Of a stretch of 64,000 nt of DNA, positions 21,004-36,553 are shown in pieces. Below the pieces are notes generated by a model, which saw only the letters and a list, made by a program, of their open reading frames with translations, was not told the origin of the DNA and did not search any database. Position numbers and translations under genes: made by a program. Origin of the DNA: an uncultured Desulfocapsaceae bacterium (GTDB lineage: Bacteria; Desulfobacterota; Desulfobulbia; Desulfobulbales; Desulfocapsaceae); NCBI GenBank assembly GCA_964565605.1, contig CAZMFP010000014.1, positions 9,700-73,699 of the forward strand, written 5' to 3'. Position 1 is the stretch's first letter; every line of letters starts with the position of its first letter.

Positions 21004-22662
21004 ATGGACTTTTGGCGCAACTATAAAAAACTGTTCGGTGACGTTACTCCTCCCGTATTGACACTTATGATCATTGCGGCTCTTATGGTCATGGAGACGG
21101 CTATTTCACTTGTCTCACCCTGGATTGCCGGTCGATTTACCGAGACGCTTTTATCCCCCTCACCGTCTTTATCTTTTTCATCTCAACAGCTTCTTATGAT
21201 CTGGCTGGTTATTTTAGCAATTAAAGGAATCTTGAACTTTTTTAACAGTTATTATACCGGAAAGATCTCCCAGAAAATGCTGACAGACATGCGGATAAAA
21301 CTCTACAATCATCTGCAGATGCTGCCGATAAGTTACTACCATGATAAGAAACATGGTAAAATACTGGCTTTTCTCACCAATGACGCAGCTATTATCTCCA
21401 CATTTATTACCGGCACCCTGGTCAGGCTGATTCCAATTATCATCACGATCTGCGGCGCTCTTATCTGTATCTATTTTATTTCTCCAATGGCCACTCTGTT
21501 TGCGGCTTTACTCATTCCTGTCTTTTATATCATCACCAAGCTTCTCGGACGCTCTATCCGGGGCCTGTCGCAATCGATGATTGAAGAATATTCCAAAACT
21601 CTTGCCATTGCCGATGAAAACCTGTCAACTCTGCCTCTTATCAAATCGTATACCAGAGAAAATCAAGAATCACTGAAATTTTCCAGGAGCAGTCATCGGC
21701 TCTTGAGGCAGACCATCAAATATCTAAAAATACAATCCTTTCTTGCACCGCTTACAAAATTTCTAGCAACAGTTATCATATTCATCATTCTCTGGTTTCT
21801 CTCCAACCAACTAGTCGAAGGAGTGATCAGCTCGGCTGACATGGTCTCCCTGATCCTGTATGGAATGCTGATTACCCAACCGATCAGCGGTCTCGCCAGC
21901 CTGTATGGACAACTTCAACATACCATTGGCGCCTCTAAGCGGCTCTATCAACTTTTCTCTATCATTCCGGAAAACAAATATAGTGGAGCGACCCTGGAAC
22001 ACGTCCGCGGAGATATAGAATTTTGCAATATCAATTTCAGCTATCCCGGTCGAGACGCTATATTTTCACAACTTAATTTAAAAATTACCGCTGGAGAAAC
22101 CATCGCCATAACCGGTAAAAACGGAGCCGGAAAATCAACTCTGGTCCATCTACTCATGCGATTCATCAATCCCGGTAGCGGTCGGATACTCATTGACAAG
22201 GAAAATATCCGTAAGTGTTCTATCTTGAGCCTTAGGCAGCAGATCGGCATGGTTCAACAGCAGGTTTTTTTGCAAAATTCAACTGTTAAGGAAAATATTC
22301 TTTTTGGTAAACCAACGGCTACTACTGAGGAAATCGAGGAAGCTGCCAGAAGAGCTCATGCCAGTGATTTTATTAATAAACTGCCGGATGGCTATGATAC
22401 ATTAATCGGAGACCAGGGAATCAAACTGTCCGGTGGCCAGAAACAGCGACTGGCTCTTGCCCGAGTCATGCTCAAAGATCCACCAGTGATGATACTTGAT
22501 GAAGCTACCGCCATGTTTGACCCGACAGGAGAAACAGAATTTATCCAAGAATGCAAAAAGCTGTTGAAAGGTAAAACCGTCATCCTCATCACCCACAGAC
22601 CAGGAAGTCTAGCTTTGGCCGATACAGTCTATACGCTTGAAAACGGCCGGCTTAGAAAATAA
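21004..22662 (+). CDS. ABC exporter, fused permease/ATPase (MsbA/ABCB type)
   Basis: The N-terminal domain has 6 TM segments. Motifs present are Walker A GKNGAGKST, signature LSGGQKQR and Walker B MILDEAT. Confidence 0.85.
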   Translation: MDFWRNYKKLFGDVTPPVLTLMIIAALMVMETAISLVSPWIAGRFTETLLSPSPSLSFSSQQLLMIWLVILAIKGILNFFNSYYTGKISQKMLTDMRIKLYNHLQMLPISYYHDKKHGKILAFLTNDAAIISTFITGTLVRLIPIIITICGALICIYFISPMATLFAALLIPVFYIITKLLGRSIRGLSQSMIEEYSKTLAIADENLSTLPLIKSYTRENQESLKFSRSSHRLLRQTIKYLKIQSFLAPLTKFLATVIIFIILWFLSNQLVEGVISSADMVSLILYGMLITQPISGLASLYGQLQHTIGASKRLYQLFSIIPENKYSGATLEHVRGDIEFCNINFSYPGRDAIFSQLNLKITAGETIAITGKNGAGKSTLVHLLMRFINPGSGRILIDKENIRKCSILSLRQQIGMVQQQVFLQNSTVKENILFGKPTATTEEIEEAARRAHASDFINKLPDGYDTLIGDQGIKLSGGQKQRLALARVMLKDPPVMILDEATAMFDPTGETEFIQECKKLLKGKTVILITHRPGSLALADTVYTLENGRLRK

Positions 22663-23923: not shown

Positions 23924-24124
23924 ATGCTCGTTCAAATAAATGGGAAACAAGAAAAAATTTCAGCCGGCACCACAGTAAGCGATCTGCTTGATCAGCTGCA
24001 ATTGGCTCCCGGCTCCGTTGTCGTTGAGTTAAACAGGGCCATTCTCAGCCCAGACGATTTAACCGATTATATAATACAAGAAGGTGATGCTCTCGAGTTG
24101 ATTCGTTTTGTAGGAGGAGGATGA
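23924..24124 (+). CDS. thiS: Thiamine biosynthesis sulfur carrier ThiS
   Basis: A 66-aa protein with a ubiquitin-like fold pattern, ending in ...RFVGGG (C-terminal GG). It lies directly upstream of thiG. Confidence 0.85.
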
Positions 24125-24125
24125 T

Positions 24126-24908
24126 ATGTTGACAATAGCTGGGAAAGAATTCAGCTCAAGGCTGTTTTTAGGTACCGGAAAATTTTCATCGTCTGCGGTA
24201 ATGAAAGAGGCCATTGAGGCCTCCGGAACCGAAATGGTCACCGTCGCTCTTCGGCGGGTGGATCTGGAAAATCCGCAGGATGATATAATGTCCTCCCTCG
24301 ACCGAAGCAGATACACCTTTTTGCCAAACACATCCGGTGCTCGGGATGCCGCAGAAGCTATTCGATTGGCCCATCTGGCCCGTACCGCTTCCGGCTCAAA
24401 CTGGCTTAAACTTGAAGTAACCCCTGACCCGAGAACACTTCTGCCTGATCCGGCAGAAACCCTCGAGGCCACCAGGCAGCTTGTCCAGGACGGTTTTATT
24501 GTTCTTCCTTATATGAATGCCGATCCGATTCTTGCCTTACGTCTGCAGGATGTTGGCGCTGCTGCTGTTATGCCGCTCGGTGCCCCCATAGGAACCAATC
24601 AGGGTTTAATTACCCGATACCAGATAGAGATCATCATCGAACAGGCCAGTGTTCCGGTTGTCGTCGATGCCGGAATCGGCGCACCCTCACATGCGGCGCT
24701 TGCCATGGAAATAGGTGCTGACGCCGCCTTAGTAAATACAGCCATCTCCGTTGCCAGGGATCCGGTGAAAATGGCTGCTGCTTTTGCCCAGGGCGTTGAG
24801 GCAGGCCGTACAGCTTTTGAGGCCGGGCTGGGTGCCCAGCAGTTACGAGCCAGCGCCTCCTCACCCGAAGAAGGCCAATTGACTGAAGATCTTGGTTTTT
24901 TAAGTTGA
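24126..24908 (+). CDS. thiG: Thiazole synthase ThiG
   Basis: The sequence contains [21 protein letters not shown] and VMPLGAPIG(T)NQG motifs. Confidence 0.9.
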
Positions 24909-24911
24909 GTT

Positions 24912-26015
24912 ATGATACATATTCCACCTTTTTCAGAGCTCAGCTCAACAATTCACTCGGCAACCAGCAGGGATGTTGAGGCAGCGCTTACCTCTTCCAA
25001 GTGTAATATTAACCACTACAGCGCTCTTATCTCACCAGCTGCAGAGCCCTATCTTTCCCAGATGGCCGCCCGATCTAAACAGATCACTCTTGAACGGTTC
25101 GGAAAGACGACCCAGCTCTACGGACCAATCTATCTTTCCAACTACTGCACCAACCGCTGCCTGTATTGCGGTTTTTCAGCCGACAACAGAATTGCAAGAC
25201 GATGTCTATCCATTGATGAGGCGGTGCAGGAAGCAGACATCCTCCTGGAGCGTGGTTTCCAGCACATTCTCCTTGTTTCCGGAGAATCGGAAAAAATCCT
25301 CGGTGTTGACTATCTCGAAGAGATCGCTTTACGGTTGCGAGACTCTTTTGCCTCCATCTCCATTGAAGTTCAGCCCCTGTCAATTGATGAGTACAGGCGT
25401 CTTTTTCAAGCTGGAATCACAGGTGTAGCCGTTTACCAGGAAACTTACGACCGATCGCTATACGACAAGCTGCACCCTGCCGGCAAAAAAAAGGATTATG
25501 ACTACCGACTGGATACGCCCAATCGTGTTGGTGGCGCAGGGATGAGGGAAATCGGCATCGGGGCCTTACTCGGTCTCTCGGACTGGCGTTGTGAAGGTTT
25601 GGCTCTGGGGCTTCATTTGAGCTGGCTGCGGAAAAAATTCTGGCGTACCGGCCTTACTGTTTCCTTCCCAAGAATCCGGCCCGCTGCCGGTGAATTTGAT
25701 CCTTTTGTTCATGTCAGTGAGAAAAACTTGAGCCAGCTCATCTTCGCGCTCAGGATTTTTGACCACGATGTTGGCCTGGTCCTGTCAACCCGTGAGGAAG
25801 AACGATACAGAAATGGAATGCTGGGTCTTGGACCGACACGTTTTTCAGCCGGCTCCTGTACTGTTCCCGGAGGGTATGCAAACCCGGAACTTGAAGGTGA
25901 GCAATTCAGTGTCGGTGACCACAGATCCATCAAGGAAGTAAGTGAAATGATACGACAGAATGGATTCGACCCTGTTTATAAAGACTGGGACAGAGAATTT
26001 CAATTAACAACCTGA
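24912..26015 (+). CDS. thiH: 2-iminoacetate synthase ThiH (radical SAM)
   Basis: The CxxxCxxC motif appears as YLSNYCTNRCLYCGF. The length of about 367 aa fits, and the gene follows thiSG. Confidence 0.85.
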   Translation: MIHIPPFSELSSTIHSATSRDVEAALTSSKCNINHYSALISPAAEPYLSQMAARSKQITLERFGKTTQLYGPIYLSNYCTNRCLYCGFSADNRIARRCLSIDEAVQEADILLERGFQHILLVSGESEKILGVDYLEEIALRLRDSFASISIEVQPLSIDEYRRLFQAGITGVAVYQETYDRSLYDKLHPAGKKKDYDYRLDTPNRVGGAGMREIGIGALLGLSDWRCEGLALGLHLSWLRKKFWRTGLTVSFPRIRPAAGEFDPFVHVSEKNLSQLIFALRIFDHDVGLVLSTREEERYRNGMLGLGPTRFSAGSCTVPGGYANPELEGEQFSVGDHRSIKEVSEMIRQNGFDPVYKDWDREFQLTT

Positions 26016-27658: not shown

Positions 27659-27687
27659 TTGACTACCAACATATAGTTGGTTATATT
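27659..27687 (+). promoter_or_regulatory. Candidate sigma70 promoter of the RiPP cassette, with a palindromic spacer
   Basis: TTGACT (27659-27664), a 17-nt spacer, then TATATT (27682-27687), about 65 nt upstream of ATG 27752. The spacer contains the palindrome ccaacatatagttgg. Confidence 0.4.
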
Positions 27688-27751
27688 TACTTTATACTCC
27701 AATTAACAATCATTATTGATTTAGCAATACATTATCCTTGTAAACTGAAAG

Positions 27752-28054
27752 ATGAAACTTTCTGCCGTGCCCATTAAAAACCCGGCAGTCCTTGGGCAAA
27801 AGATTGTCGCTGATGAAATGATATTAATGAACGCCGACACAGCTGCTTCCCTGGCTCTAACAAACCAAACAGCTCTCACAGTCTGGGAGATGATTGACGG
27901 CAAACGATCAATACAAGGCATCATCAATGGATTAATTGATTACTTCCAGGACATTCCTGACACTGTTGCTGATGATGTATTGGGTCTACTGGAGTTATTA
28001 TCAAAAGATGGCTTTATTGGCTTTGAGTACAAACCGGAACATTCCAACTTATGA
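27752..28054 (+). CDS. PqqD-family (RRE) peptide chaperone, copy 1 (ScmD-like)
   Basis: A 100-aa protein. The pattern ...MNADTAASLALTNQTALTVWEMIDGKRSIQGIINGLIDYF...VADDVLGLLELLSKDGFI is typical of the PqqD/RRE winged helix. Confidence 0.65.
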   Translation: MKLSAVPIKNPAVLGQKIVADEMILMNADTAASLALTNQTALTVWEMIDGKRSIQGIINGLIDYFQDIPDTVADDVLGLLELLSKDGFIGFEYKPEHSNL

Positions 28055-28326
28055 GCAAAGAAATAGCATACCAGGTCAATCCCGTTGTTTCGTGTGGTGA
28101 AGAGGAAGATGGTGCCATTCTCTACAACCCCGACACCAATGATAGTTCGATCATCAATTTAAGCGGCTTAGAGTTATGGAAGCTCTTTAACACGCCACGG
28201 ACTGTAATAGAAGCAGCTCAACATCTCGTAGAGAATTACAGCAAGGTCACTATTCAGCAGGCTACTGAGGATGTCCAGCTATTCGTCGAGACCTTGACAC
28301 CTGATTTTCTTATTGAAACCAAATGA
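28051..28326 (+). CDS. PqqD-family (RRE) peptide chaperone, copy 2
   Basis: A 91-aa protein with ...GAILYNPDTNDSSIINLSGLELWKLFNTPRTVIEAAQHLVENY...VQLFVETLTPDFLI. An ATGA overlap links it to the upstream gene. Confidence 0.6.
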   Translation: MSKEIAYQVNPVVSCGEEEDGAILYNPDTNDSSIINLSGLELWKLFNTPRTVIEAAQHLVENYSKVTIQQATEDVQLFVETLTPDFLIETK

Positions 28327-28329
28327 ATT

Positions 28330-29466
28330 ATGGCCCAAGAGCAAATGATACCGGATCCAGTTGTACCTCCTCCGGAAGTGCCAAGTCGACCTAGAACTAT
28401 CGACATTTCACTTACAGGTCGATGTAATCTCAGATGCCAATACTGTTTTTACAATAATGAGATGATTGCCCTTGAAGACCTGTCTACTGAAGACTGGTTC
28501 TCCTTCTTCCAGGAGATTGGCTCACTTGCTGTACGCCATGTTACTCTTAGTGGTGGTGAAGTCTTTACTCGACCAGACTTTTTTGATTTAATTGACGGGG
28601 TAATCGAAAACAGAATGCGCTATTCGATTCTGACCAACGGTACCCTGATTACCGAAGAGACTCTCTTGGCTTTTGAAAAAGGCAAACGTCGACTTCGGCT
28701 CGACTCTATTCAAGTTTCCATAGATGGGTCCTGCGCAGACATCCATAACAAGAGCAGACCACCCAACAGTTTTGACAGAGCTATACAAAGCGTAAAACTA
28801 TTAAAACAAGCCAATTTTCCCGTTACGGTTCGAGTAACAATAAATCGACACAACATAAATGATCTCGATAATATTGCGGAATTACTCTTATCTCAGATAG
28901 GGTTATCCAGTTTCAGCACTAACGAAGCTGAACAGATGGGCACTGCCCGCTGCAATGGCCAAGACGTGGCCTTGACAGATGAAGAACGCATTTATGCCCG
29001 CTCTGCCCTCTCGAACCTAAACAAGCGGCATGATAATTGCATCTCTGCAGATGCGGGCCCACTTGCTTTTGAACGCCACTTAGAGGAAATAGAAAAGTCT
29101 ATGGCTGAAGGAAAAACAGCACTACCAGGACGAGGAACCTTAAGTTCATGTGGTGGTGTTTACAACAAAATGGCGGTTCTCCATGACGGAACTATGGTCC
29201 CATGCAACATGCTGCCGGCATTGACAATGGGTAAAATCGGTACAACACCTCTAAAGGAAGCATGGTTGCACCATCCATCAATTAATGTGGTTCGCCAACG
29301 TATGCTGATCCCCTTGCAATCGCTGGCCACCTGCAGCGACTGCAATTACACCGGTTTCTGCTCCGGCGGGTGCCCGGCCAATGCAATGGCAAAATTTAAC
29401 AGACTCAATGAAATTGACCCTACTTTCTGTTACCGACTTCAAAAGAGGAAAGGAGCCCATCAATGA
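28330..29466 (+). CDS. Radical SAM/SPASM peptide-modifying enzyme 1 (PqqE-like; ScmE/ScmF-type)
   Basis: The radical SAM motif is GRCNLRCQYCF. The SPASM region reads SSCGGVYNKMAVLHDGTMVPC...CSDCNYTGFCSGGCPANA. Confidence 0.85.
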   Translation: MAQEQMIPDPVVPPPEVPSRPRTIDISLTGRCNLRCQYCFYNNEMIALEDLSTEDWFSFFQEIGSLAVRHVTLSGGEVFTRPDFFDLIDGVIENRMRYSILTNGTLITEETLLAFEKGKRRLRLDSIQVSIDGSCADIHNKSRPPNSFDRAIQSVKLLKQANFPVTVRVTINRHNINDLDNIAELLLSQIGLSSFSTNEAEQMGTARCNGQDVALTDEERIYARSALSNLNKRHDNCISADAGPLAFERHLEEIEKSMAEGKTALPGRGTLSSCGGVYNKMAVLHDGTMVPCNMLPALTMGKIGTTPLKEAWLHHPSINVVRQRMLIPLQSLATCSDCNYTGFCSGGCPANAMAKFNRLNEIDPTFCYRLQKRKGAHQ

Positions 29467-30656
29467 ACGGTTGTAACTACCAGGAACCCGAGGGCAACAT
29501 TGATAAAAAGCTTGACTTGCCGGAAGGAGTTCCACCGCTCCGAGCGTTCTACCTCTACCTTTCCAACAGCTGTAACCTTGCCTGCCGTCACTGCTGGATT
29601 ACAACCTCTCTAGTCAGTGGCACACCGGACACGGAAGATGTAATTGACACAGAACTCTTAAGAGGTGCCATTAAAGAAGCCAAGCCAATGGGTTTGAGCA
29701 ATATCAAACTCACTGGCGGAGAACCTTTGCTTCACCCAAAATTTCAAGAAATTGTTGAGATGCTCACCAAAGAAGGTCTCAACCTGGATTTGGAGACCAA
29801 CGGAACTCTCATTACTGCTGAACTAGCTCATTTTCTGAAGAACAAGTCTGCTGTCAGCTTCATATCGATCTCCCTGGATGGCAGCAACCCTCAAGACCAT
29901 GACCGTTTCCGAGGCGTGAAAGGCGCTTTTCAATCAGCTCTTCATGGCCTCGACCACTTAGTCGCTGCCGGCTATGACAATATCCAGGTCATTATGTCTG
30001 TTCATCATGAAAACCAGAGGCAGATTGAAGATGTCGTCCGCCTGGCCGCTGACCATGGCGCCTCCTCTGTCAAGTTTAACCCCATAATTAAAAGCGGTCG
30101 AGGAATTGGCATGAGCCAACGAGGTGAAACCCTTGATATTCACCAGCGAATTGCCTTAAATCATTTTATATATGATGAACTTCAACCAAAGCTGACCAAA
30201 GAAGGCGTCGATATCGACTTATACATCTACAGCCCGCCAGCCCTGACACCTATTCAGGAACTCTTTACTGGTAAAAGGTGTGATTTTAACTGCGAAGTGT
30301 TAAGCATCCTTGGGATACTCGGAGGTGGGGAAATAGCCCTCTGCGGTATCGGTAGAAACATCCCCGAACTCGTTTATGGCAACCTGGAGAAGGATTCTAT
30401 TCGAAAGATCTGGTTATCCCATCCAACTATCTTACAATTACGAAAGGACCTGGACAATACTGCTGAATATCCAGGAATTTGCGGCAAGTGCTTAGCAGCG
30501 AAATTATGTCGAACCGGCTGTATTGCTCAAAATTTTCTTGAAAGCAAACAGATGATCTGGCCAAATTTTCTCTGCGAAAAAGCCGAAAAGCACAACCTCT
30601 TCCCTAAAACCAGAAAAAAACCAGCAGCACTTGCTACCAGCACGACTAGTGGCTGA
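29463..30656 (+). CDS. Radical SAM/SPASM peptide-modifying enzyme 2 (PqqE-like; ScmE/ScmF-type)
   Basis: The radical SAM motif is NSCNLACRHCW. The C-terminal auxiliary-cluster cysteines read CDFNCEV...ALCGIG...CGKCLAAKLCRTGC. An ATGA overlap links it to enzyme 1. Confidence 0.85.
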   Translation: MNGCNYQEPEGNIDKKLDLPEGVPPLRAFYLYLSNSCNLACRHCWITTSLVSGTPDTEDVIDTELLRGAIKEAKPMGLSNIKLTGGEPLLHPKFQEIVEMLTKEGLNLDLETNGTLITAELAHFLKNKSAVSFISISLDGSNPQDHDRFRGVKGAFQSALHGLDHLVAAGYDNIQVIMSVHHENQRQIEDVVRLAADHGASSVKFNPIIKSGRGIGMSQRGETLDIHQRIALNHFIYDELQPKLTKEGVDIDLYIYSPPALTPIQELFTGKRCDFNCEVLSILGILGGGEIALCGIGRNIPELVYGNLEKDSIRKIWLSHPTILQLRKDLDNTAEYPGICGKCLAAKLCRTGCIAQNFLESKQMIWPNFLCEKAEKHNLFPKTRKKPAALATSTTSG

Positions 30657-30682
30657 AAATAATTATTACACAGGAGTAAACA

Positions 30683-30886
30683 ATGAAAAAAAATGAAAAA
30701 AAGACCTCAAGCGACCCCCGACCCGCATATGTTCCTCCTCAGGTTTCTAAATTAGATGACATGCACGCCGGCGCTGGATATGGTTGTGTCCCTGGAAGCG
30801 GCGGATCATTAAACTGTTCAAACAGTGGCAGTAACGCAACTAATTGCATAGGATCAGGCAGCTCCGCAGACAACTCTATTGGGTAA
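30683..30886 (+). CDS. Candidate RiPP precursor peptide (67 aa, Gly/Ser/Asn-rich core with three Cys)
   Basis: AGGAG lies 7 nt upstream of ATG 30683. The sequence is MKKNEKKTSSDPRPAYVPPQVSKLDDMHAGAGYGCVPGSGGSLNCSNSGSNATNCIGSGSSADNSIG. It has a charged leader and a low-complexity core, and it sits between the maturases and the peptidase-fusion gene. Confidence 0.6.
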   Translation: MKKNEKKTSSDPRPAYVPPQVSKLDDMHAGAGYGCVPGSGGSLNCSNSGSNATNCIGSGSSADNSIG

Positions 30887-30901
30887 GACCTGACTCGTTA
30901 G

Positions 30902-30954
30902 CAGCTGGATCTACCAATTTCCTGTTAACAAAACATGGAAATGGTATCCAGCTG
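30902..30954 (+). other. Long hairpin immediately 3' of the precursor ORF (transcript stabiliser or partial terminator)
   Basis: cagctggatctaccaatttcc - 14-nt loop - ggaaatggtatccagctg. About 17 bp pair, with two bulges. No T-run follows. Confidence 0.5.
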
Positions 30955-30976
30955 TAAGTGATCACTGCATCTTTTC

Positions 30977-32677
30977 TTGCCATCGGCATACTCTCCTTTA
31001 CTGAATATGTTATACAGTGATCATAGATCTGCTTTCCCGCAATACATCCTGCAATTGACGGGACAGCAATGGGCTATACAGGCCGGTAACACGGAAGCTA
31101 TCAACATCGTTAACGACTTTGCAAATGCCATGTCGTTATCCCTCGTCAACCAGGCAACTGATACGAAAGTACCTGAAGAAGCAACTTGGAGCAATTTAGT
31201 CGTTTTCATAAACCCTGCCGGCAAACGACTAACCGTTAATATTCATCAGTCCAAACCTCATATCTGCGTTCTTCCTTCACCAGACGATAATGAACTCTAT
31301 GCACTAGCCATGTCACATATTGGCCTGAGCATACTTCCTGTTGAATTAGAAAGAGGCGGAGTTCTGGTACATGGCGCCTTAGCTGAAGTCCCTGCTCATT
31401 ATGGTGGCGGAGGCATTTTACTTGCTGGCCCCGGCACTGTCGGAAAGACGACTGCCAGCAATAGACTACCTCCTCCCTGGAAATCATTGAGCGATGACGC
31501 TTCCCTGATATCGCCAGGTGATGACGGTCAATACTGGGTACACCCATGGCCCACCTGGAGCCGATTCAACGACTTACCTGATGGAACTCCTGGCTCTGGC
31601 GGCATCTGGGACACTCAATACAGGCTTCCGCTTCGAGCTGTTTTTTTTCTATCACAGGCAGAAGAAGATCGAATCAGCCCCATCACCCCAACATCCGCAA
31701 CTTCTTGCCTGATGGAAACAATCCAACATGTTTCAAAGCTTCTCACCCGCCAACTTCCTCTTGTGGATGCACAGCCTATTCACGAGAAAGAGCTCCTCAA
31801 CGCCTCAGAAATTATGCGTGTCACCCCTTCCTACAGGTTTGACATCAGCCGATCCAGGCCATTCTGGAAAAAGATAGAAGAACTATTCCGCACAACCCCA
31901 CCAACCATTCCTCATCAACCAAAACGTACCATACCCCTCACATCTTCATTGACAACAAAGAGCCAATTTTCTCAAAAACCTCTTTTTCGAGACGATACAA
32001 TAATAGTCAACTATTTTGGCAATAGTATGAGCCCGACACTGAACCACCCTGATTTACTCATTGTCTCATCTTATAAAGGACAAACCCTGAATGTTGGTGA
32101 TGTTATCTATTACCAGCCACCAGCAATCGAACCTAAAACCGTACATCGGATTATCGCCTCAATACCTGAAGGATTTGTTACCCGTGGTGATGGTAATAAC
32201 GCAAACGATGCCTACATACTGAACCGAAACGATATAATCGGCATTGTTACCGCTGCCAGGAGCTACAACAAACATCGTGTTGTTGCCGGGGGCAAGAAGG
32301 GACTCTTGATTGCTTATCGCTGCAGGTTTGCCAAATGGTTACATCACCAGCTCTCCTTTCTTCTGGGCGGAACTTACCGGCGACTTGTCTCTTCGGGCTT
32401 TTTTTATAATCGACTACCAGCATGGCTAAAACCGCAAATATTCGAATTTAAACGACAATTTTTACCTCCTATTCTCAAATTGATCATCAAAGGATATGTT
32501 ATCGGCCAATTCAATCCTCAGCAGAAAAATTGGCAACTCAATCGACTCTGGAAATTGCTCATTGACACATCAACTCTTCCTATTGCAAGAGACCTATCAT
32601 TCTTTTTCATTTCGTACCAGGATCTTGATCGCCATATCCTCAACCATTCATCGCCCCCACATGTGCCATATAAATAA
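30977..32677 (+). CDS. HPr-kinase-like (ScmC-like) P-loop domain fused to an S26B (SipW/archaeal-type) signal peptidase I domain
   Basis: The N-terminal half has GVLVHGALAE...GGGGILLAGPGTVGKTTAS, an HprK C-domain-like P-loop. The C-terminal half has FGNSMSPTLNHPDLLIV (Ser nucleophile box), VHRII (His box) and TRGDGNNANDAY (GDNN box). The start is either TTG 30977 or ATG 31007. Confidence 0.7.
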   Translation: MPSAYSPLLNMLYSDHRSAFPQYILQLTGQQWAIQAGNTEAINIVNDFANAMSLSLVNQATDTKVPEEATWSNLVVFINPAGKRLTVNIHQSKPHICVLPSPDDNELYALAMSHIGLSILPVELERGGVLVHGALAEVPAHYGGGGILLAGPGTVGKTTASNRLPPPWKSLSDDASLISPGDDGQYWVHPWPTWSRFNDLPDGTPGSGGIWDTQYRLPLRAVFFLSQAEEDRISPITPTSATSCLMETIQHVSKLLTRQLPLVDAQPIHEKELLNASEIMRVTPSYRFDISRSRPFWKKIEELFRTTPPTIPHQPKRTIPLTSSLTTKSQFSQKPLFRDDTIIVNYFGNSMSPTLNHPDLLIVSSYKGQTLNVGDVIYYQPPAIEPKTVHRIIASIPEGFVTRGDGNNANDAYILNRNDIIGIVTAARSYNKHRVVAGGKKGLLIAYRCRFAKWLHHQLSFLLGGTYRRLVSSGFFYNRLPAWLKPQIFEFKRQFLPPILKLIIKGYVIGQFNPQQKNWQLNRLWKLLIDTSTLPIARDLSFFFISYQDLDRHILNHSSPPHVPYK

Positions 32678-32952
32678 CCTAGAAGCACTTTTTGAACAGC
32701 AGCATCTCTCCTCCGATGGAGATGAAATTTTTTCCGGAAAAATGAAACGCTTTTCCGGAAATTTGAAATTGCGGTGCTTCACTCCTCAATCATCAAGACC
32801 AATCTATACAATATCAACCTGTTACCAACCAACAATCAAATCTATGGTTTGGCACGCATGTTGCAAAGAAAACAGTAAATACTTATATTCACATATACAG
32901 AATACGATATTTGCTCAATAGAAATACAAAAAGTGCAGAAGAGGAGATTGTT

Positions 32953-33870
32953 ATGAAATTAAAAATCAGATTGTTTTTCTTGCTGGCTAGTATAATGCTT
33001 TTCAGCGCAACAAATGTGTTAGCAGCCAGTTTTGTCATTAATGACAGATGGGATGAGGACGGTATCTATTGGGGTGGTCAAAATTATGATTTTGGAGGCA
33101 CTGGTTATAATCTGCCCTCAGGAGAAGATCTTGTTGGCCAGCCTGATGAGTTTGAAATTTCCCAAGTAAATGTAGACATCACAAACACGGAATTAGAAAT
33201 TGATGTGCACTCCGTCTTCATGAACTATATGGCAACTCACGATACCCCCGTTGAGTTTGGAGACATATTCCTTAGCAATGATGGCTGGAATCCAAACACA
33301 GCCGGTGTAAACTATCAGTATGATGTTCAAGGTTTTGGCGGAGAAGACTGGGAATATGTTTTGGTTTTTGATGACCATTCCCCAACCACCACTACCGGGA
33401 CATTTAACCTCTATGAAGTTGATGAAAGTAGAATCATTTACCCAGAGGACATCGCTGCTCTAGATCCTAGCTCAGTGCGCCATGGCCAAGAAGTTCTCTA
33501 TGATGCAACCGGGCAGGAAGTATTAAATCAAGGCTGGTACAGGGACTCCAATGGTAATTGGCAAAATGGCATTCTCTCGGGTACATGGGAATGGTTTAAT
33601 TGGGATACTCCAGATGCCAGTGACGATTTTGTAACCTTAACCATGAATTTGAATTTTTGGGTTCGTGACAGTAATTATCGGTGGAACAATGTTACTTGGG
33701 GTAACTTAGGACTCGTTGATGACATGGGTATACACATGGCGATGACATGCGCCAATGATGTTGTTGAAGGTGGCGATGAAATTCCCGAGCCAGCGACCAT
33801 GATGCTCTTTGGAACCGGACTTGCAGGACTAGCTGGCAGCGCCATTCGCAGAAGGAAAAAAAATAAGTAA
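32953..33870 (+). CDS. PEP-CTERM sorting-domain secreted protein
   Basis: A GAGGAG RBS precedes the start. The signal peptide is MKLKIRLFFLLASIMLFSATNVLAA. The C-terminus IPEPATMMLFGTGLAGLAGSAIRRRKKNK shows the PEP motif, a TM helix and an Arg-rich tail. Confidence 0.8.
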   Translation: MKLKIRLFFLLASIMLFSATNVLAASFVINDRWDEDGIYWGGQNYDFGGTGYNLPSGEDLVGQPDEFEISQVNVDITNTELEIDVHSVFMNYMATHDTPVEFGDIFLSNDGWNPNTAGVNYQYDVQGFGGEDWEYVLVFDDHSPTTTTGTFNLYEVDESRIIYPEDIAALDPSSVRHGQEVLYDATGQEVLNQGWYRDSNGNWQNGILSGTWEWFNWDTPDASDDFVTLTMNLNFWVRDSNYRWNNVTWGNLGLVDDMGIHMAMTCANDVVEGGDEIPEPATMMLFGTGLAGLAGSAIRRRKKNK

Positions 33871-34418: not shown

Positions 34419-35342
34419 TCATTGAAGCAATTGTGTGATATCAACAACATCCACAGAGGAAGTCAGCTCTTTGCCGCACCCTTTTAGCGCGAGAAGCGTT
34501 ACCTTGCTTGGATGACCTATACCTATGGCACTGCCTTGCAGCTCAGCCAATTGAACAAGTTTTTTCAATTGATTGCACACTTGTTCCTCTGTAAGGACAT
34601 TGTCTAGGAAAACGTTGCGCCTGGCTGTTTTAATCCCTACTTTGCGGGCAACAAGGTAGCCGATACTTTTTGATGTGGTGAACGAATCTATGTAGAAAAG
34701 CTCTTTTTCCTTAACCAGTCCAAGCAAAGTAGTCATCGCCTGTCGATCTTCTGTATACAGGGAACCCATATGATTGTTGACTCCGGTAGCATGAGGGACA
34801 CGGTCAAAATTTCTCTCAAACAATTCCCTTACCTTTTGTGCCCCATCGCCAATATAGAGCGCTCCAGGCCCGGGATCCCACTCCTTGCTTCTGGGCTGCA
34901 AAGGAAGATGCAGCAGTACAGCCCTGCCATCTTTATAAGAAATGCTTTCAAGCTCCTGGGTAAATGGGGCAAAAGGTAGAAATGAAAAAGACAGATTCAT
35001 TTCAAGAGACAGGAATCTGTAACCAAGCTCCCTATCGTGCCCCATATCATCAATAATGATCGCAACTTTTGGACGCCCTTTGTCCGACTCTGTCTTCTTT
35101 TTTACGATCCCAGCAACTTCTGGGGGCACAGGAGCAAAAGGCTCTTCAAAAATAATTGAGTTTTGTTTTTTAGTCTCAATCTCACCGGCAAGCACCGTGC
35201 GAAAAAAGATTACGTAACTGGCCACCAATAGAGTAAAAAGAAAAAAGCAGATGACTGCAAAGGTTGTCAGCCCTCGTTTAAAGATCCTGACATTGGGTCC
35301 TTTAGATCTCTTACGTGAAAGTTTATTTTTTTTTCCTGCCAT
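34419..35342 (-). CDS. Divergent polysaccharide deacetylase family protein (YibQ-like)
   Basis: An N-terminal TM anchor is present. The motifs VAIIIDDMGHD, GVNNHMGS and IGIGHP are typical of the YibQ/DUF610 family. Confidence 0.7.
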   Translation of the reverse strand: MAGKKNKLSRKRSKGPNVRIFKRGLTTFAVICFFLFTLLVASYVIFFRTVLAGEIETKKQNSIIFEEPFAPVPPEVAGIVKKKTESDKGRPKVAIIIDDMGHDRELGYRFLSLEMNLSFSFLPFAPFTQELESISYKDGRAVLLHLPLQPRSKEWDPGPGALYIGDGAQKVRELFERNFDRVPHATGVNNHMGSLYTEDRQAMTTLLGLVKEKELFYIDSFTTSKSIGYLVARKVGIKTARRNVFLDNVLTEEQVCNQLKKLVQLAELQGSAIGIGHPSKVTLLALKGCGKELTSSVDVVDITQLLQ

Positions 35343-35563: not shown

Positions 35564-36553
35564 TTATTTATTCCTGGTTAAAACATAATGAGCCAGTTCC
35601 TCTAAAATAACAAACGGATGTCCGTCACCATGTTCTTTATATGGCTTGAGGTGGTGCAGAGCCTCATCTATCAGATTCTGCGCCTTTTTCCTGCTGTCAG
35701 CAAAACCGCTGTGAGACTGAATAAAGTCATAAACTTGATTAAAAGACCGTATCCGTTCCTCTTTCGAGGTCAATATCTCAAGAAATCGTTTCTTATCACT
35801 CCTCTCAGACCTGTTCATCGCATAAATAAGAGGAAGGGTCATTTTTCCTTCAGCCAGGTCATTACCTTTAGACTTTCCGGTCTTGGCCTCATCGCCTTGA
35901 TAATCCAGGAGGTCATCAATTATCTGGAATGCGCAGCCCAAATTGATTCCATAGAGGCTCAATGCCTTTCTATCCAGACTGTTTCCACCACCGAAACAAC
36001 AGCCAATTTCAGTGGCTGCTCCTATCAATAAAGCTGTCTTACCGATAATTCCATCAAAATATTGATCAGCGGATTGGTTATAATTGGTTGCATTTCTTAG
36101 CTGTACAAATTCACCATCGACCATGCCGTGGGTGGCTTTACAAAAAATATCAAGAAGTTGTTTATTGCCATATGTCCCGATCAGCCACATCGACCTGGAG
36201 TGGAGAAAATCACCCGCAAGTATTGCCGGAATCATCCCATATTGACAATGTACAGTGGCCTTGCCACGCCTTGTCTCTCCATTATCAATCACATCATCAT
36301 GAAGAAGAGTGGCAACGTGCAGGTACTCAAATGCTATGGCCAATTTGTATAAGTCGTGCTCATCCTTTGTGCCGAACAGACGGGCAGATAGAACCATCAG
36401 CAACGGCCTGAACCTCTTACCACCACCAAACAGGGAATACTCAAGAACTTCTTGTAATAGACCATCCACATCTGCAGTAACCCCATCAAGGTCTGCGCGC
36501 ATGACTGAATCGATCTTTTTTGATTCGGGAATAATCAGGTCAAACAGTTTCAT
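35564..36553 (-). CDS. ispB: Long-chain polyprenyl diphosphate synthase (IspB-like)
   Basis: The first DDxxD motif is LLHDDVIDNGETRRGK and the second is FQIIDDLLDY. Confidence 0.85.
   Translation of the reverse strand: MKLFDLIIPESKKIDSVMRADLDGVTADVDGLLQEVLEYSLFGGGKRFRPLLMVLSARLFGTKDEHDLYKLAIAFEYLHVATLLHDDVIDNGETRRGKATVHCQYGMIPAILAGDFLHSRSMWLIGTYGNKQLLDIFCKATHGMVDGEFVQLRNATNYNQSADQYFDGIIGKTALLIGAATEIGCCFGGGNSLDRKALSLYGINLGCAFQIIDDLLDYQGDEAKTGKSKGNDLAEGKMTLPLIYAMNRSERSDKKRFLEILTSKEERIRSFNQVYDFIQSHSGFADSRKKAQNLIDEALHHLKPYKEHGDGHPFVILEELAHYVLTRNK

Follow-up and report, generated by a model that had tools for sequence, protein, structure and literature searches.

Gene content and family membership

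The 64,000-nt stretch of DNA analysed here (the window; contig CAZMFP010000014.1, from an uncultured Desulfocapsaceae bacterium) contains a cassette of six intact plus-strand open reading frames (ORFs) within ~5 kb (Table 1). The genes encode two small PqqD-like proteins, two radical S-adenosylmethionine (rSAM) enzymes with SPASM domains, a small peptide, and a protein in which a P-loop domain is fused to an S26-type peptidase. A first-pass annotation of the same DNA had described the locus as a SynChlorMet-like cassette for a ribosomally synthesised and post-translationally modified peptide (RiPP). The six ORFs, their order, motifs, overlaps, and gaps are confirmed from the sequence: ATGA overlaps occur at 28051 and 29463, and the gaps that remain among the first five genes are 3 nt and 26 nt. 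The domain calls held as well, with both small proteins passing the Pfam PqqD cut-off (23.4 bits), both large proteins matching Radical_SAM and SPASM, and Pfam recognising Peptidase_S26 in the fusion protein. That all six genes are translationally coupled is true only in part. The first five are tightly spaced, and the precursor gene is preceded by an AGGAG Shine-Dalgarno sequence 7 nt upstream, whereas the sixth, for which gene callers and homologue alignments agree on a start at ATG 31007, begins 120 nt past the precursor stop, beyond a strong hairpin.

Table 1. Features of the cassette and its surroundings, in window coordinates
Feature	Position	Strand	Description
MsbA-type ABC exporter	21004-22662		552 aa
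thiS-thiG-thiH	23924-26015
Promoter-like site TTGACT-17 nt-TATATT	27659-27687	+	10/12 consensus matches
Palindromic spacer of promoter-like site	27665-27681		Candidate operator
PqqD copy 1	27752-28054	+	100 aa, Pfam PqqD 37.4 bits
PqqD copy 2	28051-28326	+	91 aa, Pfam PqqD 36.4 bits
ScmE-like rSAM/SPASM	28330-29466	+	378 aa, CNLRCQYC
ScmF-like rSAM/SPASM	29463-30656	+	397 aa, CNLACRHC
ScmA-like precursor	30683-30886	+	67 aa
Predicted leader	30683-30778	+	Residues 1-32
Predicted core	30779-30883	+	Residues 33-67
RNA hairpin between precursor and ScmC genes	30891-30964	+	-37.7 kcal/mol, z = -4.5
ScmC-S26 fusion gene	30977/31007-32677	+	566-aa ORF / 556-aa protein from ATG 31007
ScmC domain	31007-31906	+	Residues 1-300 of 556-aa protein; TIGR04249
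S26B (SEC11/SipW-type) peptidase domain	31994-32290	+	sigpep_I_arch TIGR02228 55.7 bits, cut-off 51.85
C-terminal helix and small beta domain, stop codon	32291-32677	+	LPxxLxPR...KL...VIGxYD...W.I..P.RL conserved
Terminator-like hairpin and T-run	32703-32734	+	26 nt past ScmC-S26 stop; consensus scan only
PEP-CTERM (exosortase-sorted) protein	32911-33870, likely start 32953		Directly after cassette
Polysaccharide deacetylase	34419-35342	-	Divergent
Polyprenyl synthetase	35564-36553	-

The SynChlorMet (Scm) models of NCBIfam are by far the best matches for four of the five enzyme genes, which bears out the SynChlorMet-like identity. ScmC passes its cut-off (TIGR04249, 132.7 bits against 125) over residues 87-302 of the 566-aa ORF. 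ScmE and ScmF match full-length and fall below theirs (TIGR04250, 378.5 bits, and TIGR04251, 335.1 bits, each against 400), with the next family at 132 and 133 bits, respectively. The two PqqD copies match the ScmD model only weakly (TIGR04248, 34.2 and 31.0 bits against a cut-off of 100). The window is thus assigned to SynChlorMet as its best-matching family, whereas by the equivalog cut-offs only ScmC qualifies, and the cassette is a divergent one with two PqqDs. The hmmsearch comparison suggested by the annotation places both rSAMs with the Scm type and rules out the reading of these enzymes as anaerobic sulfatase maturases (67 bits against a cut-off of 349).

By scanning one genome per species for ScmC relatives, we obtained matches in 140 of 185,579 species-representative genomes and retrieved 80 loci, which were typed by mapping the window's proteins onto them. 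The hosts of these ~140 genomes include sulfate reducers, syntrophs, Chloroflexota, anammox bacteria, and methanogens, and almost all are anaerobes. Two subtypes can be distinguished. In type A, to which 20 loci including the window's relatives belong, two PqqD genes and a fused ScmC-S26 gene are present without exception; this type is found in Desulfobulbales, Chloroflexota, WOR-3, Syntrophorhabdaceae, and several methanogens. Type B (28 loci) mostly has one PqqD gene (one or none) and shows the order S26-ScmC in 25 loci, as a fusion in 13 and as adjacent genes in 12. A type B control locus passes all four cut-offs (ScmD 106.2, ScmE 549.7, ScmF 526.3, and ScmC 194 bits), whereas a second type A locus repeats the sub-threshold pattern seen in the window. 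It follows that type B is the canonical SynChlorMet cassette and that the window represents a divergent sister subtype.

Like the canonical cassettes, the window encodes a PqqD, two PqqE-like rSAM/SPASM enzymes, ScmC, and a small precursor with Cys repeats. The differences lie in the sub-threshold scores of ScmE, ScmF, and both PqqDs, in a precursor that falls outside the ScmA model, and in the combination of two PqqDs with ScmC-S26, where canonical loci combine one PqqD with S26-ScmC, either fused or split. The window also lacks the exporter and nucleotidyltransferase found in most members: across the loci, an MsbA-like ATP-binding cassette (ABC) exporter is encoded in 44 and a PF14907 "uncharacterised nucleotidyltransferase" in 36, in most of them just downstream of ScmC. 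The precursor and built-in leader peptidase, which the annotation had presented as special to this locus, are not, since nearly all relatives have ScmC and S26 as a fusion, in either order, or as adjacent genes. A precursor and a fused peptidase are family-wide features, and the value of this locus is its compact six-gene form together with the model described below. Its description as an uncharacterised RiPP class stands, as a literature search returned no paper on SynChlorMet or Scm proteins or on the chemistry of their product.

In some genomes, we observe a second, divergent Scm-like set nearby (a faint ScmC, an rSAM, a PqqD, and another rSAM), or two ScmC-S26 genes with several precursors between them. 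Such sets occur in L083 (13706-17513), L074 (4552-9729, minus strand), and L016 (3499-9506), and their presence suggests tandem duplication and diversification of the Scm system.

The precursor family and the enzymes encoded beside it

The 67 residues of the window peptide divide into a predicted leader, which includes Y16-V-P-P19-Q-V...L24 and G30-A-G32, and a predicted core, YGC VPGSGGSLN C SNSGSNATN C IGSGSSADNSIG; we infer the boundary to lie after residue 32. The core consists of three exact 10-residue units (C35-VPGSGGSLN, C45-SNSGSNATN, and C55-IGSGSSADNSIG) and a tail. Searching the small ORFs of the related loci with phmmer and then with a hidden Markov model (HMM) built from the matches recovered 79 peptides. 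An HMM built without the window peptide finds it at 61.4 bits (E = 4e-18), the next-best of 1034 window ORFs reaching 10 bits, and no extra precursor genes were found in the window. At least one peptide of the family is present in 59/81 loci, inside or beside the cassette. The explicit precursor candidate put forward in the annotation is thereby borne out, as a conserved small ORF does accompany the homologous cassettes in the neighbourhood comparison. An exhaustive phmmer search of 1.84 billion representative proteins gave 30 matches, ~26 of which are small peptides of the same pattern; a word-index search with the window peptide returned only itself.

Within the family, the leader follows the consensus Y-x-x-P-x-[AV]-x-R-L...G-x-G, in which YxxPx[AV] continues as x-R-L-[GD]-[DE]-x3-G-x-G. 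Among 97 peptides, the Y and P of YxxP are conserved in 100%, [AV] in 79%, L at +8 in 91%, G at +14 in 80%, and G at +16 in 88%; R or P precedes the conserved L, [GD] and then [DE] follow it, and the first Cys is at Y+18 or +19. The cores are rich in Gly, Ala, Thr, and Ser, contain 1-10 Cys, and are hypervariable in sequence and repeat number, and several loci have 2-3 different precursor genes. A regular period is nonetheless evident, with 204/284 Cys-Cys spacings measuring 10-11 residues. Gly occupies Cys+3 in 71-74% and Ser occupies Cys+4 in 60%, and none of the Ser positions is strictly invariant. A conserved leader and a variable core beside Pfam PqqD proteins and modifying enzymes are the arrangement of a RiPP dependent on a RiPP recognition element (RRE), and the PqqDs are predicted to bind this leader. 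The existing NCBIfam precursor model (ScmA, TIGR04252, cut-off 35 bits) is matched by 19/74 family peptides, with a best E of 8e-7, and by this comparison the precursor family is much broader than the curated model. The existence of TIGR04252 also makes the annotation's statement that no substrate peptide was ever identified outdated.

Precursor homologues in L040 (4764-5249 and 13273-13746) and L060 (4609-5322) combine a normal leader (…KYESPTVVFLGETARGSGACQAGSG…) with very long low-complexity runs behind it, made up of GT repeats, poly-Gly, or frameshift-like RD/WD repeats. These long forms are either expanded cores or assembly or frameshift artefacts.

The two PqqD copies of the window differ in their relationships to other Scm loci. 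The single PqqD of type B and the PqqD domain fused to ScmC-S26 in P0033 and P0040 score ~58 bits to copy 1 and ~16 bits to copy 2. On these scores, copy 1 is placed as orthologous to canonical ScmD and to the PqqD domain fused to ScmC-S26 elsewhere. Copy 2 is the extra paralogue specific to type A cassettes, and 21/21 typed type A loci have two PqqD genes. In P0033 and P0040, the copy-1-type PqqD is fused to the C-terminus of ScmC-S26 and is followed by a separate PqqD and two rSAM genes. This layout suggests that copy 1 serves the kinase-like/peptidase protein and copy 2 the rSAMs. Searches of PDB sequences with the two PqqDs gave noise only.

Both rSAM enzymes have the CX3CX2C motif and seven Cys that define 7-Cys SPASM maturases, along with their Pfam Radical_SAM and SPASM matches. 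In ScmE, these are C32-x3-C36-x2-C39 and C274, C292, C335, C338, C344, C348, and C367; in ScmF, they are C37-x3-C41-x2-C44 and seven invariant SPASM Cys. Across 46 homologues of ScmE and 49 of ScmF, all ten are invariant, and the window proteins retain them; each enzyme is therefore predicted to bind three [4Fe-4S] clusters. The solved structures nearest to ScmE are those of SkfB, PqqE, SuiB, and CteB, and that nearest to ScmF is SkfB. The alignments start at residue ~21-29 of the Scm enzymes and at ~100-130 of SkfB, PqqE, SuiB, and CteB. Lacking the N-terminal RRE domain found in SkfB, CteB, and SuiB, ScmE and ScmF must rely on the discrete PqqDs.

In the ScmC domain of the fusion protein, the invariant elements are H122-G, a Walker A motif (G141-PGTVGKTT-149), the pair D163-D164 located 16 residues after the P-loop lysine, and HPWPTWSRF. 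An AF2 model of ScmC (pLDDT 85-89) retrieves only phosphoenolpyruvate carboxykinases (PEPCKs) among its top 50 Foldseek matches (best E = 3e-8, range ~1e-8 to 1e-6, TMq ~0.5). HprK shares the PEPCK-like fold. We infer that the domain is a PEPCK-like P-loop fold, and we predict that it acts as a Ser kinase on the precursor. The annotation's "HprK-like P-loop protein" is supported only at the level of fold and motif, and not as family membership, since the window protein matches neither Pfam Hpr_kinase_C nor the NCBIfam HprK-related models at E <= 0.01.

The S26B peptidase that the annotation had recognised behind the P-loop domain is present, as seen from Pfam Peptidase_S26 and from an above-threshold match to TIGR02228 (Table 1). 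Its catalytic residues are Ser340 (GNSMSP), His380 (VHRI), and Asp395/Asp401 (TRGDGNNAND), and S340, H380, D395, and D401 are invariant. The S26 profile matches SEC11C/SEC11A with an E of 4e-13, and the alignment pairs the Ser (GxSMxP), His (HR), and Asp (GDNN) motifs. A membrane anchor was not found in this domain (Kyte-Doolittle(19) maximum of 1.2, compared with 2.5 in an ABC transporter control). Lacking a hydrophobic segment, it is a soluble S26B enzyme, unlike a secretory signal peptidase, and is predicted to be the leader peptidase. The C-terminal domain that follows is modelled with a pLDDT of ~80-90 up to residue ~530.

A proposed route of maturation

Four groups of known systems resemble parts of the cassette. 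The first is the linear polyphosphorylated peptides (LPPs) of Bacillota (Popov et al. 2026, PMC13381572), which depend on an RRE, an HprK-like kinase, and a SipW-like leader peptidase. Their full gene set comprises an SpI-like peptidase, a discrete RRE, the HprK-like kinase, a nucleoside triphosphate (NTP) transferase, plus an MsbA-like exporter. The kinase adds several phosphates to core Ser3; the peptidase cuts 16 residues after the Tyr of the leader motif YxxPxVLxHQxIxFETxxS, requires the RRE, and cleaves unphosphorylated precursor poorly. LPPs are reported as restricted to Bacillota (PMC13381572). The window shares with them the RRE, the kinase-like domain, and the SipW-like peptidase, and most Scm relatives also share the NTP transferase and MsbA-like exporter. 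The Scm leader has the same YxxPx[AV] and a small-x-small G-x-G at Y+14/+16, and the motif Tyr stands about as far from the proposed cleavage site (Y+15 in LPP, Y+16 in the window). In contrast, the remainder of the LPP leader motif (VLxHQxIxFETxxS) is absent from Scm leaders. rSAM enzymes are missing from LPP clusters, whose cores are not built of Cys repeats and whose kinase and peptidase are encoded as two proteins; the hosts of Scm cassettes include Desulfobacterota, Chloroflexota, methanogenic archaea, and other groups. The window itself falls outside the LPP cluster definition, as it lacks the NTP transferase and a linked exporter and adds two rSAMs.

A second group comprises the phosphorylated or glycosylated lasso peptides, such as paeninodin and pseudomycoidin, whose [Y/W]xxP leader is bound by a PqqD-type RRE, in which a Ser of the peptide is phosphorylated by an HprK-family kinase, and to which hexoses are added by a PF14907-like nucleotidyltransferase; the Asp158-Asp159 pair is required in the lasso kinase PsmK (PMC6993621). 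The D163-D164 pair of ScmC parallels that of PsmK. The window differs in having neither a lasso cyclase nor a B2 cysteine protease; a serine S26B peptidase is instead predicted to remove the leader, and the rSAMs to install the defining modifications.

For the rSAMs, the nearest solved or curated relatives are the thioether-forming maturases (SkfB, CteB/SCIFF, PapB/freyrasin, and AlbA). ScmE and ScmF share their full 7-Cys SPASM motif, and the Scm substrate, like freyrasin with its six CxxxD repeats, is rich in Cys and repetitive. The weak similarity to SkfB and the Cys-repeat core point in the direction of sactipeptides and ranthipeptides. The similarity is nonetheless low (62-65 bits to SkfB), far under every family cut-off. 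In addition, Scm cassettes encode the RRE separately and not as an N-terminal domain, they always have two different rSAMs, and the repeat period is 10-11 residues without a conserved acceptor residue. Finally, the pathways of the cofactor pyrroloquinoline quinone (PQQ) and of mycofactocin (PqqD/PqqE and MftB/MftC) also pair a PqqD-family chaperone with a PqqE-like rSAM/SPASM enzyme on a small peptide. The window scores far under the cut-offs of these families (PqqE 96.5/381, MftC 111/265), and Scm cassettes differ from them in their variable, repetitive cores, in the kinase-like/peptidase protein, and in the exporter that is usually present.

On balance, we consider it probable that the cassette is an operon for a SynChlorMet-type RiPP of a divergent type A, in which the PqqDs, the rSAMs, the kinase-like ScmC, and S26 mature the ScmA-like peptide. 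In the route that we propose, the PqqDs would bind the leader at Y16-V-P-P19-Q-V...L24 and present it to the enzymes, with copy 2 placed with ScmE/ScmF and copy 1 with ScmC-S26. ScmE and ScmF would then modify the three 10-residue Cys repeats of the core. The likeliest chemistry would be one intramolecular thioether-type cross-link per repeat, with the other rSAM adding a second modification. By analogy with LPPs, ScmC may phosphorylate a core Ser, with Ser39 of the conserved C-x-x-G-S as the best candidate. Leader removal at the conserved small-x-small site G30-A-G32|Y33 would fall to the fused, soluble SipW-type peptidase.

Several observations weigh against this proposal. A product has yet to be observed for any Scm cassette, which leaves the chemistry unassigned, and the acceptor residues in the repeats are too poorly conserved for the sequence pattern by itself to argue for a thioether. 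The window peptide has no match to TIGR04252 even at E <= 10. An ABC exporter or PF14907 gene adjoining the cassette is absent from the window. The nearest ABC exporter lies 5 kb upstream, next to a sugar nucleotidyltransferase; we do not count it as part of the cassette, as it is ~30% identical to the cassette-linked ones and is separated from the cassette by five housekeeping genes. For ScmC, HprK does not appear among the top 50 Foldseek matches, and a second AF2 model of ScmC alone likewise retrieves only PEPCKs among its top 50. Searches of PDB sequences with the ScmC profile and the ScmC core found no kinase and no significant match to a solved HprK, and PF07475 is matched by only 2/26 ScmC homologues (E ~0.1). 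With weak links to HprK and PEPCKs as the best folds, ScmC is at most a putative kinase.

These last points bear on the best-surviving alternative, namely that ScmC is an NTP-dependent partner or regulator of the peptidase, or an enzyme of other phosphoryl or nucleotidyl chemistry, and that the final product is modified by the rSAMs only. The structural and sequence comparisons just described fit this possibility, as do the absence of a strictly invariant core Ser (including the Ser at Cys+4) and the invariant HPWPTWSRF, which is specific to ScmC and has, to our knowledge, no counterpart in HprK. We nevertheless regard it as unlikely. The Walker A motif, the H-G that precedes it, and the D-D pair downstream are all invariant, and the D-D pair corresponds to the one that is essential in PsmK. 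Moreover, the RRE, SpI, NTP_transf_5, and MsbA-like exporter are the exact set found beside a proven HprK-like kinase in LPP clusters, and a type B ScmC homologue matches HprK_rel_A (E = 3.8e-6), a weak link only, given its 26 bits against a cut-off of 200.

A second alternative concerns the product, which could be an intracellular cofactor or a metal-binding or redox peptide, comparable to PQQ or mycofactocin, rather than an exported natural product. The combination of PqqD with PqqE-like rSAM/SPASM enzymes would suit such a role, as would a regularly spaced poly-Cys core that could bind metals. The window and its Desulfocapsaceae relatives have no adjoining exporter, their cassette occupies a fixed chromosomal site amid housekeeping genes, and the hosts are almost all anaerobes, methanogens included. 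This idea is somewhat harder still to sustain, however, when the family is considered as a whole. Hypervariable cores with 1-10 Cys and loci with 2-3 precursors are typical of diversifying secreted RiPPs, the 44 loci with an MsbA-like exporter mostly encode it beside ScmC, and the conserved client enzymes expected near a cofactor cassette were not found among the conserved neighbours.

It is very improbable that the window copy is a decaying or incomplete cassette that yields no mature product and has lost its exporter and nucleotidyltransferase: the genes that usually follow ScmC are missing, and the window is without the additional PqqD and HprK-like kinase of L003 and L004, but the six ORFs are intact and tightly spaced with every invariant catalytic residue kept, identical copies of the cassette's protein sequences recur on several independent assemblies, and the exporter-less layout is kept in syntenic Desulfocapsaceae at 40-67% identity, which argues for its long-term maintenance.

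Returning to the reading of the cassette as a type A RiPP operon, we tentatively extend it to the family. Scm cassettes may constitute an as yet undescribed RiPP class in which an LPP-type module is joined to two SPASM enzymes that place a single ring, or some other radical modification, on each 10-11-residue Cys repeat. Anaerobic bacteria and methanogenic archaea alike would produce "beads-on-a-string" peptides bearing phosphate and several bridges, and the fusion of ScmC to S26 would couple phosphorylation to leader removal. This wider proposal is less secure than that for the window. The Scm models have been curated for years, and the present analysis supplies a broad precursor family, a leader motif, the 10-11-residue Cys repeat, and candidate cleavage and phosphorylation sites. 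The kinase/SipW-peptidase module of LPPs provides an experimentally grounded model for the previously opaque ScmC. The window version is the smallest self-contained form, with six genes in 5 kb and a three-repeat core, and is practical for heterologous expression. Confirmation of the product would widen the range of SipW-type leader peptidases and of RiPP phosphorylation well past Bacillota and into archaea.

Regulatory signals and gene neighbourhood

The promoter-like site at 27659 and the terminator-like hairpin at 32703, both predicted, appear to bracket the cassette as one operon. Over its full 17 nt, the spacer of the promoter-like site forms a perfect palindrome (ACCAAC-ATATA-GTTGGT) that resembles a site for a dimeric regulator and could be an operator; no regulator gene is found within the cassette. 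As a conserved operator the palindrome is ruled out, being present as a single copy in the window and absent from 82 other loci. Between the precursor and ScmC genes, the strong hairpin is matched in stability by 0/200 shuffles and has no T-run directly 3' of it, and it may stabilise the transcript or attenuate read-through. It is not a feature of the family, as only 13/69 relatives have a comparable hairpin. An Rfam scan of the whole window found no family at the gathering threshold, and a tRNA scan found no genes.

Upstream, thiS, thiG, thiH, and purH lie between the exporter region and the cassette. We detect no thiamine pyrophosphate riboswitch upstream of thiS-thiG-thiH. The window is syntenic with two Desulfocapsaceae genomes, with identities of 92% for purH, 84% for thiH, and 73% for DinG. 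Within the cassette, the identity to the syntenic relatives, in which the exporter is likewise absent, is 60-67% for ScmE/ScmF, 40-41% for ScmC-S26, and ~41-53% for the peptide. The peptide and the protein predicted to recognise its junction, both far less conserved than ScmE/ScmF and purH, thus diverge together. In L003 (1368-2836) and L004 (3011-4486), the closest syntenic Desulfocapsaceae metagenome-assembled genomes, purH and the cassette are separated by two extra genes, which encode a third PqqD (92 aa) and a stand-alone HprK-like kinase of 316-342 aa (…LHSSSV…GPVGAGKSTLA…LADD…). At this position, the window has only a 330-nt gap.

Downstream, the cassette is followed by genes for a PEP-CTERM protein, a polysaccharide deacetylase, and a polyprenyl synthetase (Table 1). 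LPP clusters have likewise been reported beside capsular polysaccharide loci (PMC13381572), a parallel to these polysaccharide-type genes that may be coincidental. The order of the PEP-CTERM, deacetylase, and polyprenyl synthetase genes is kept in L003 and L004.

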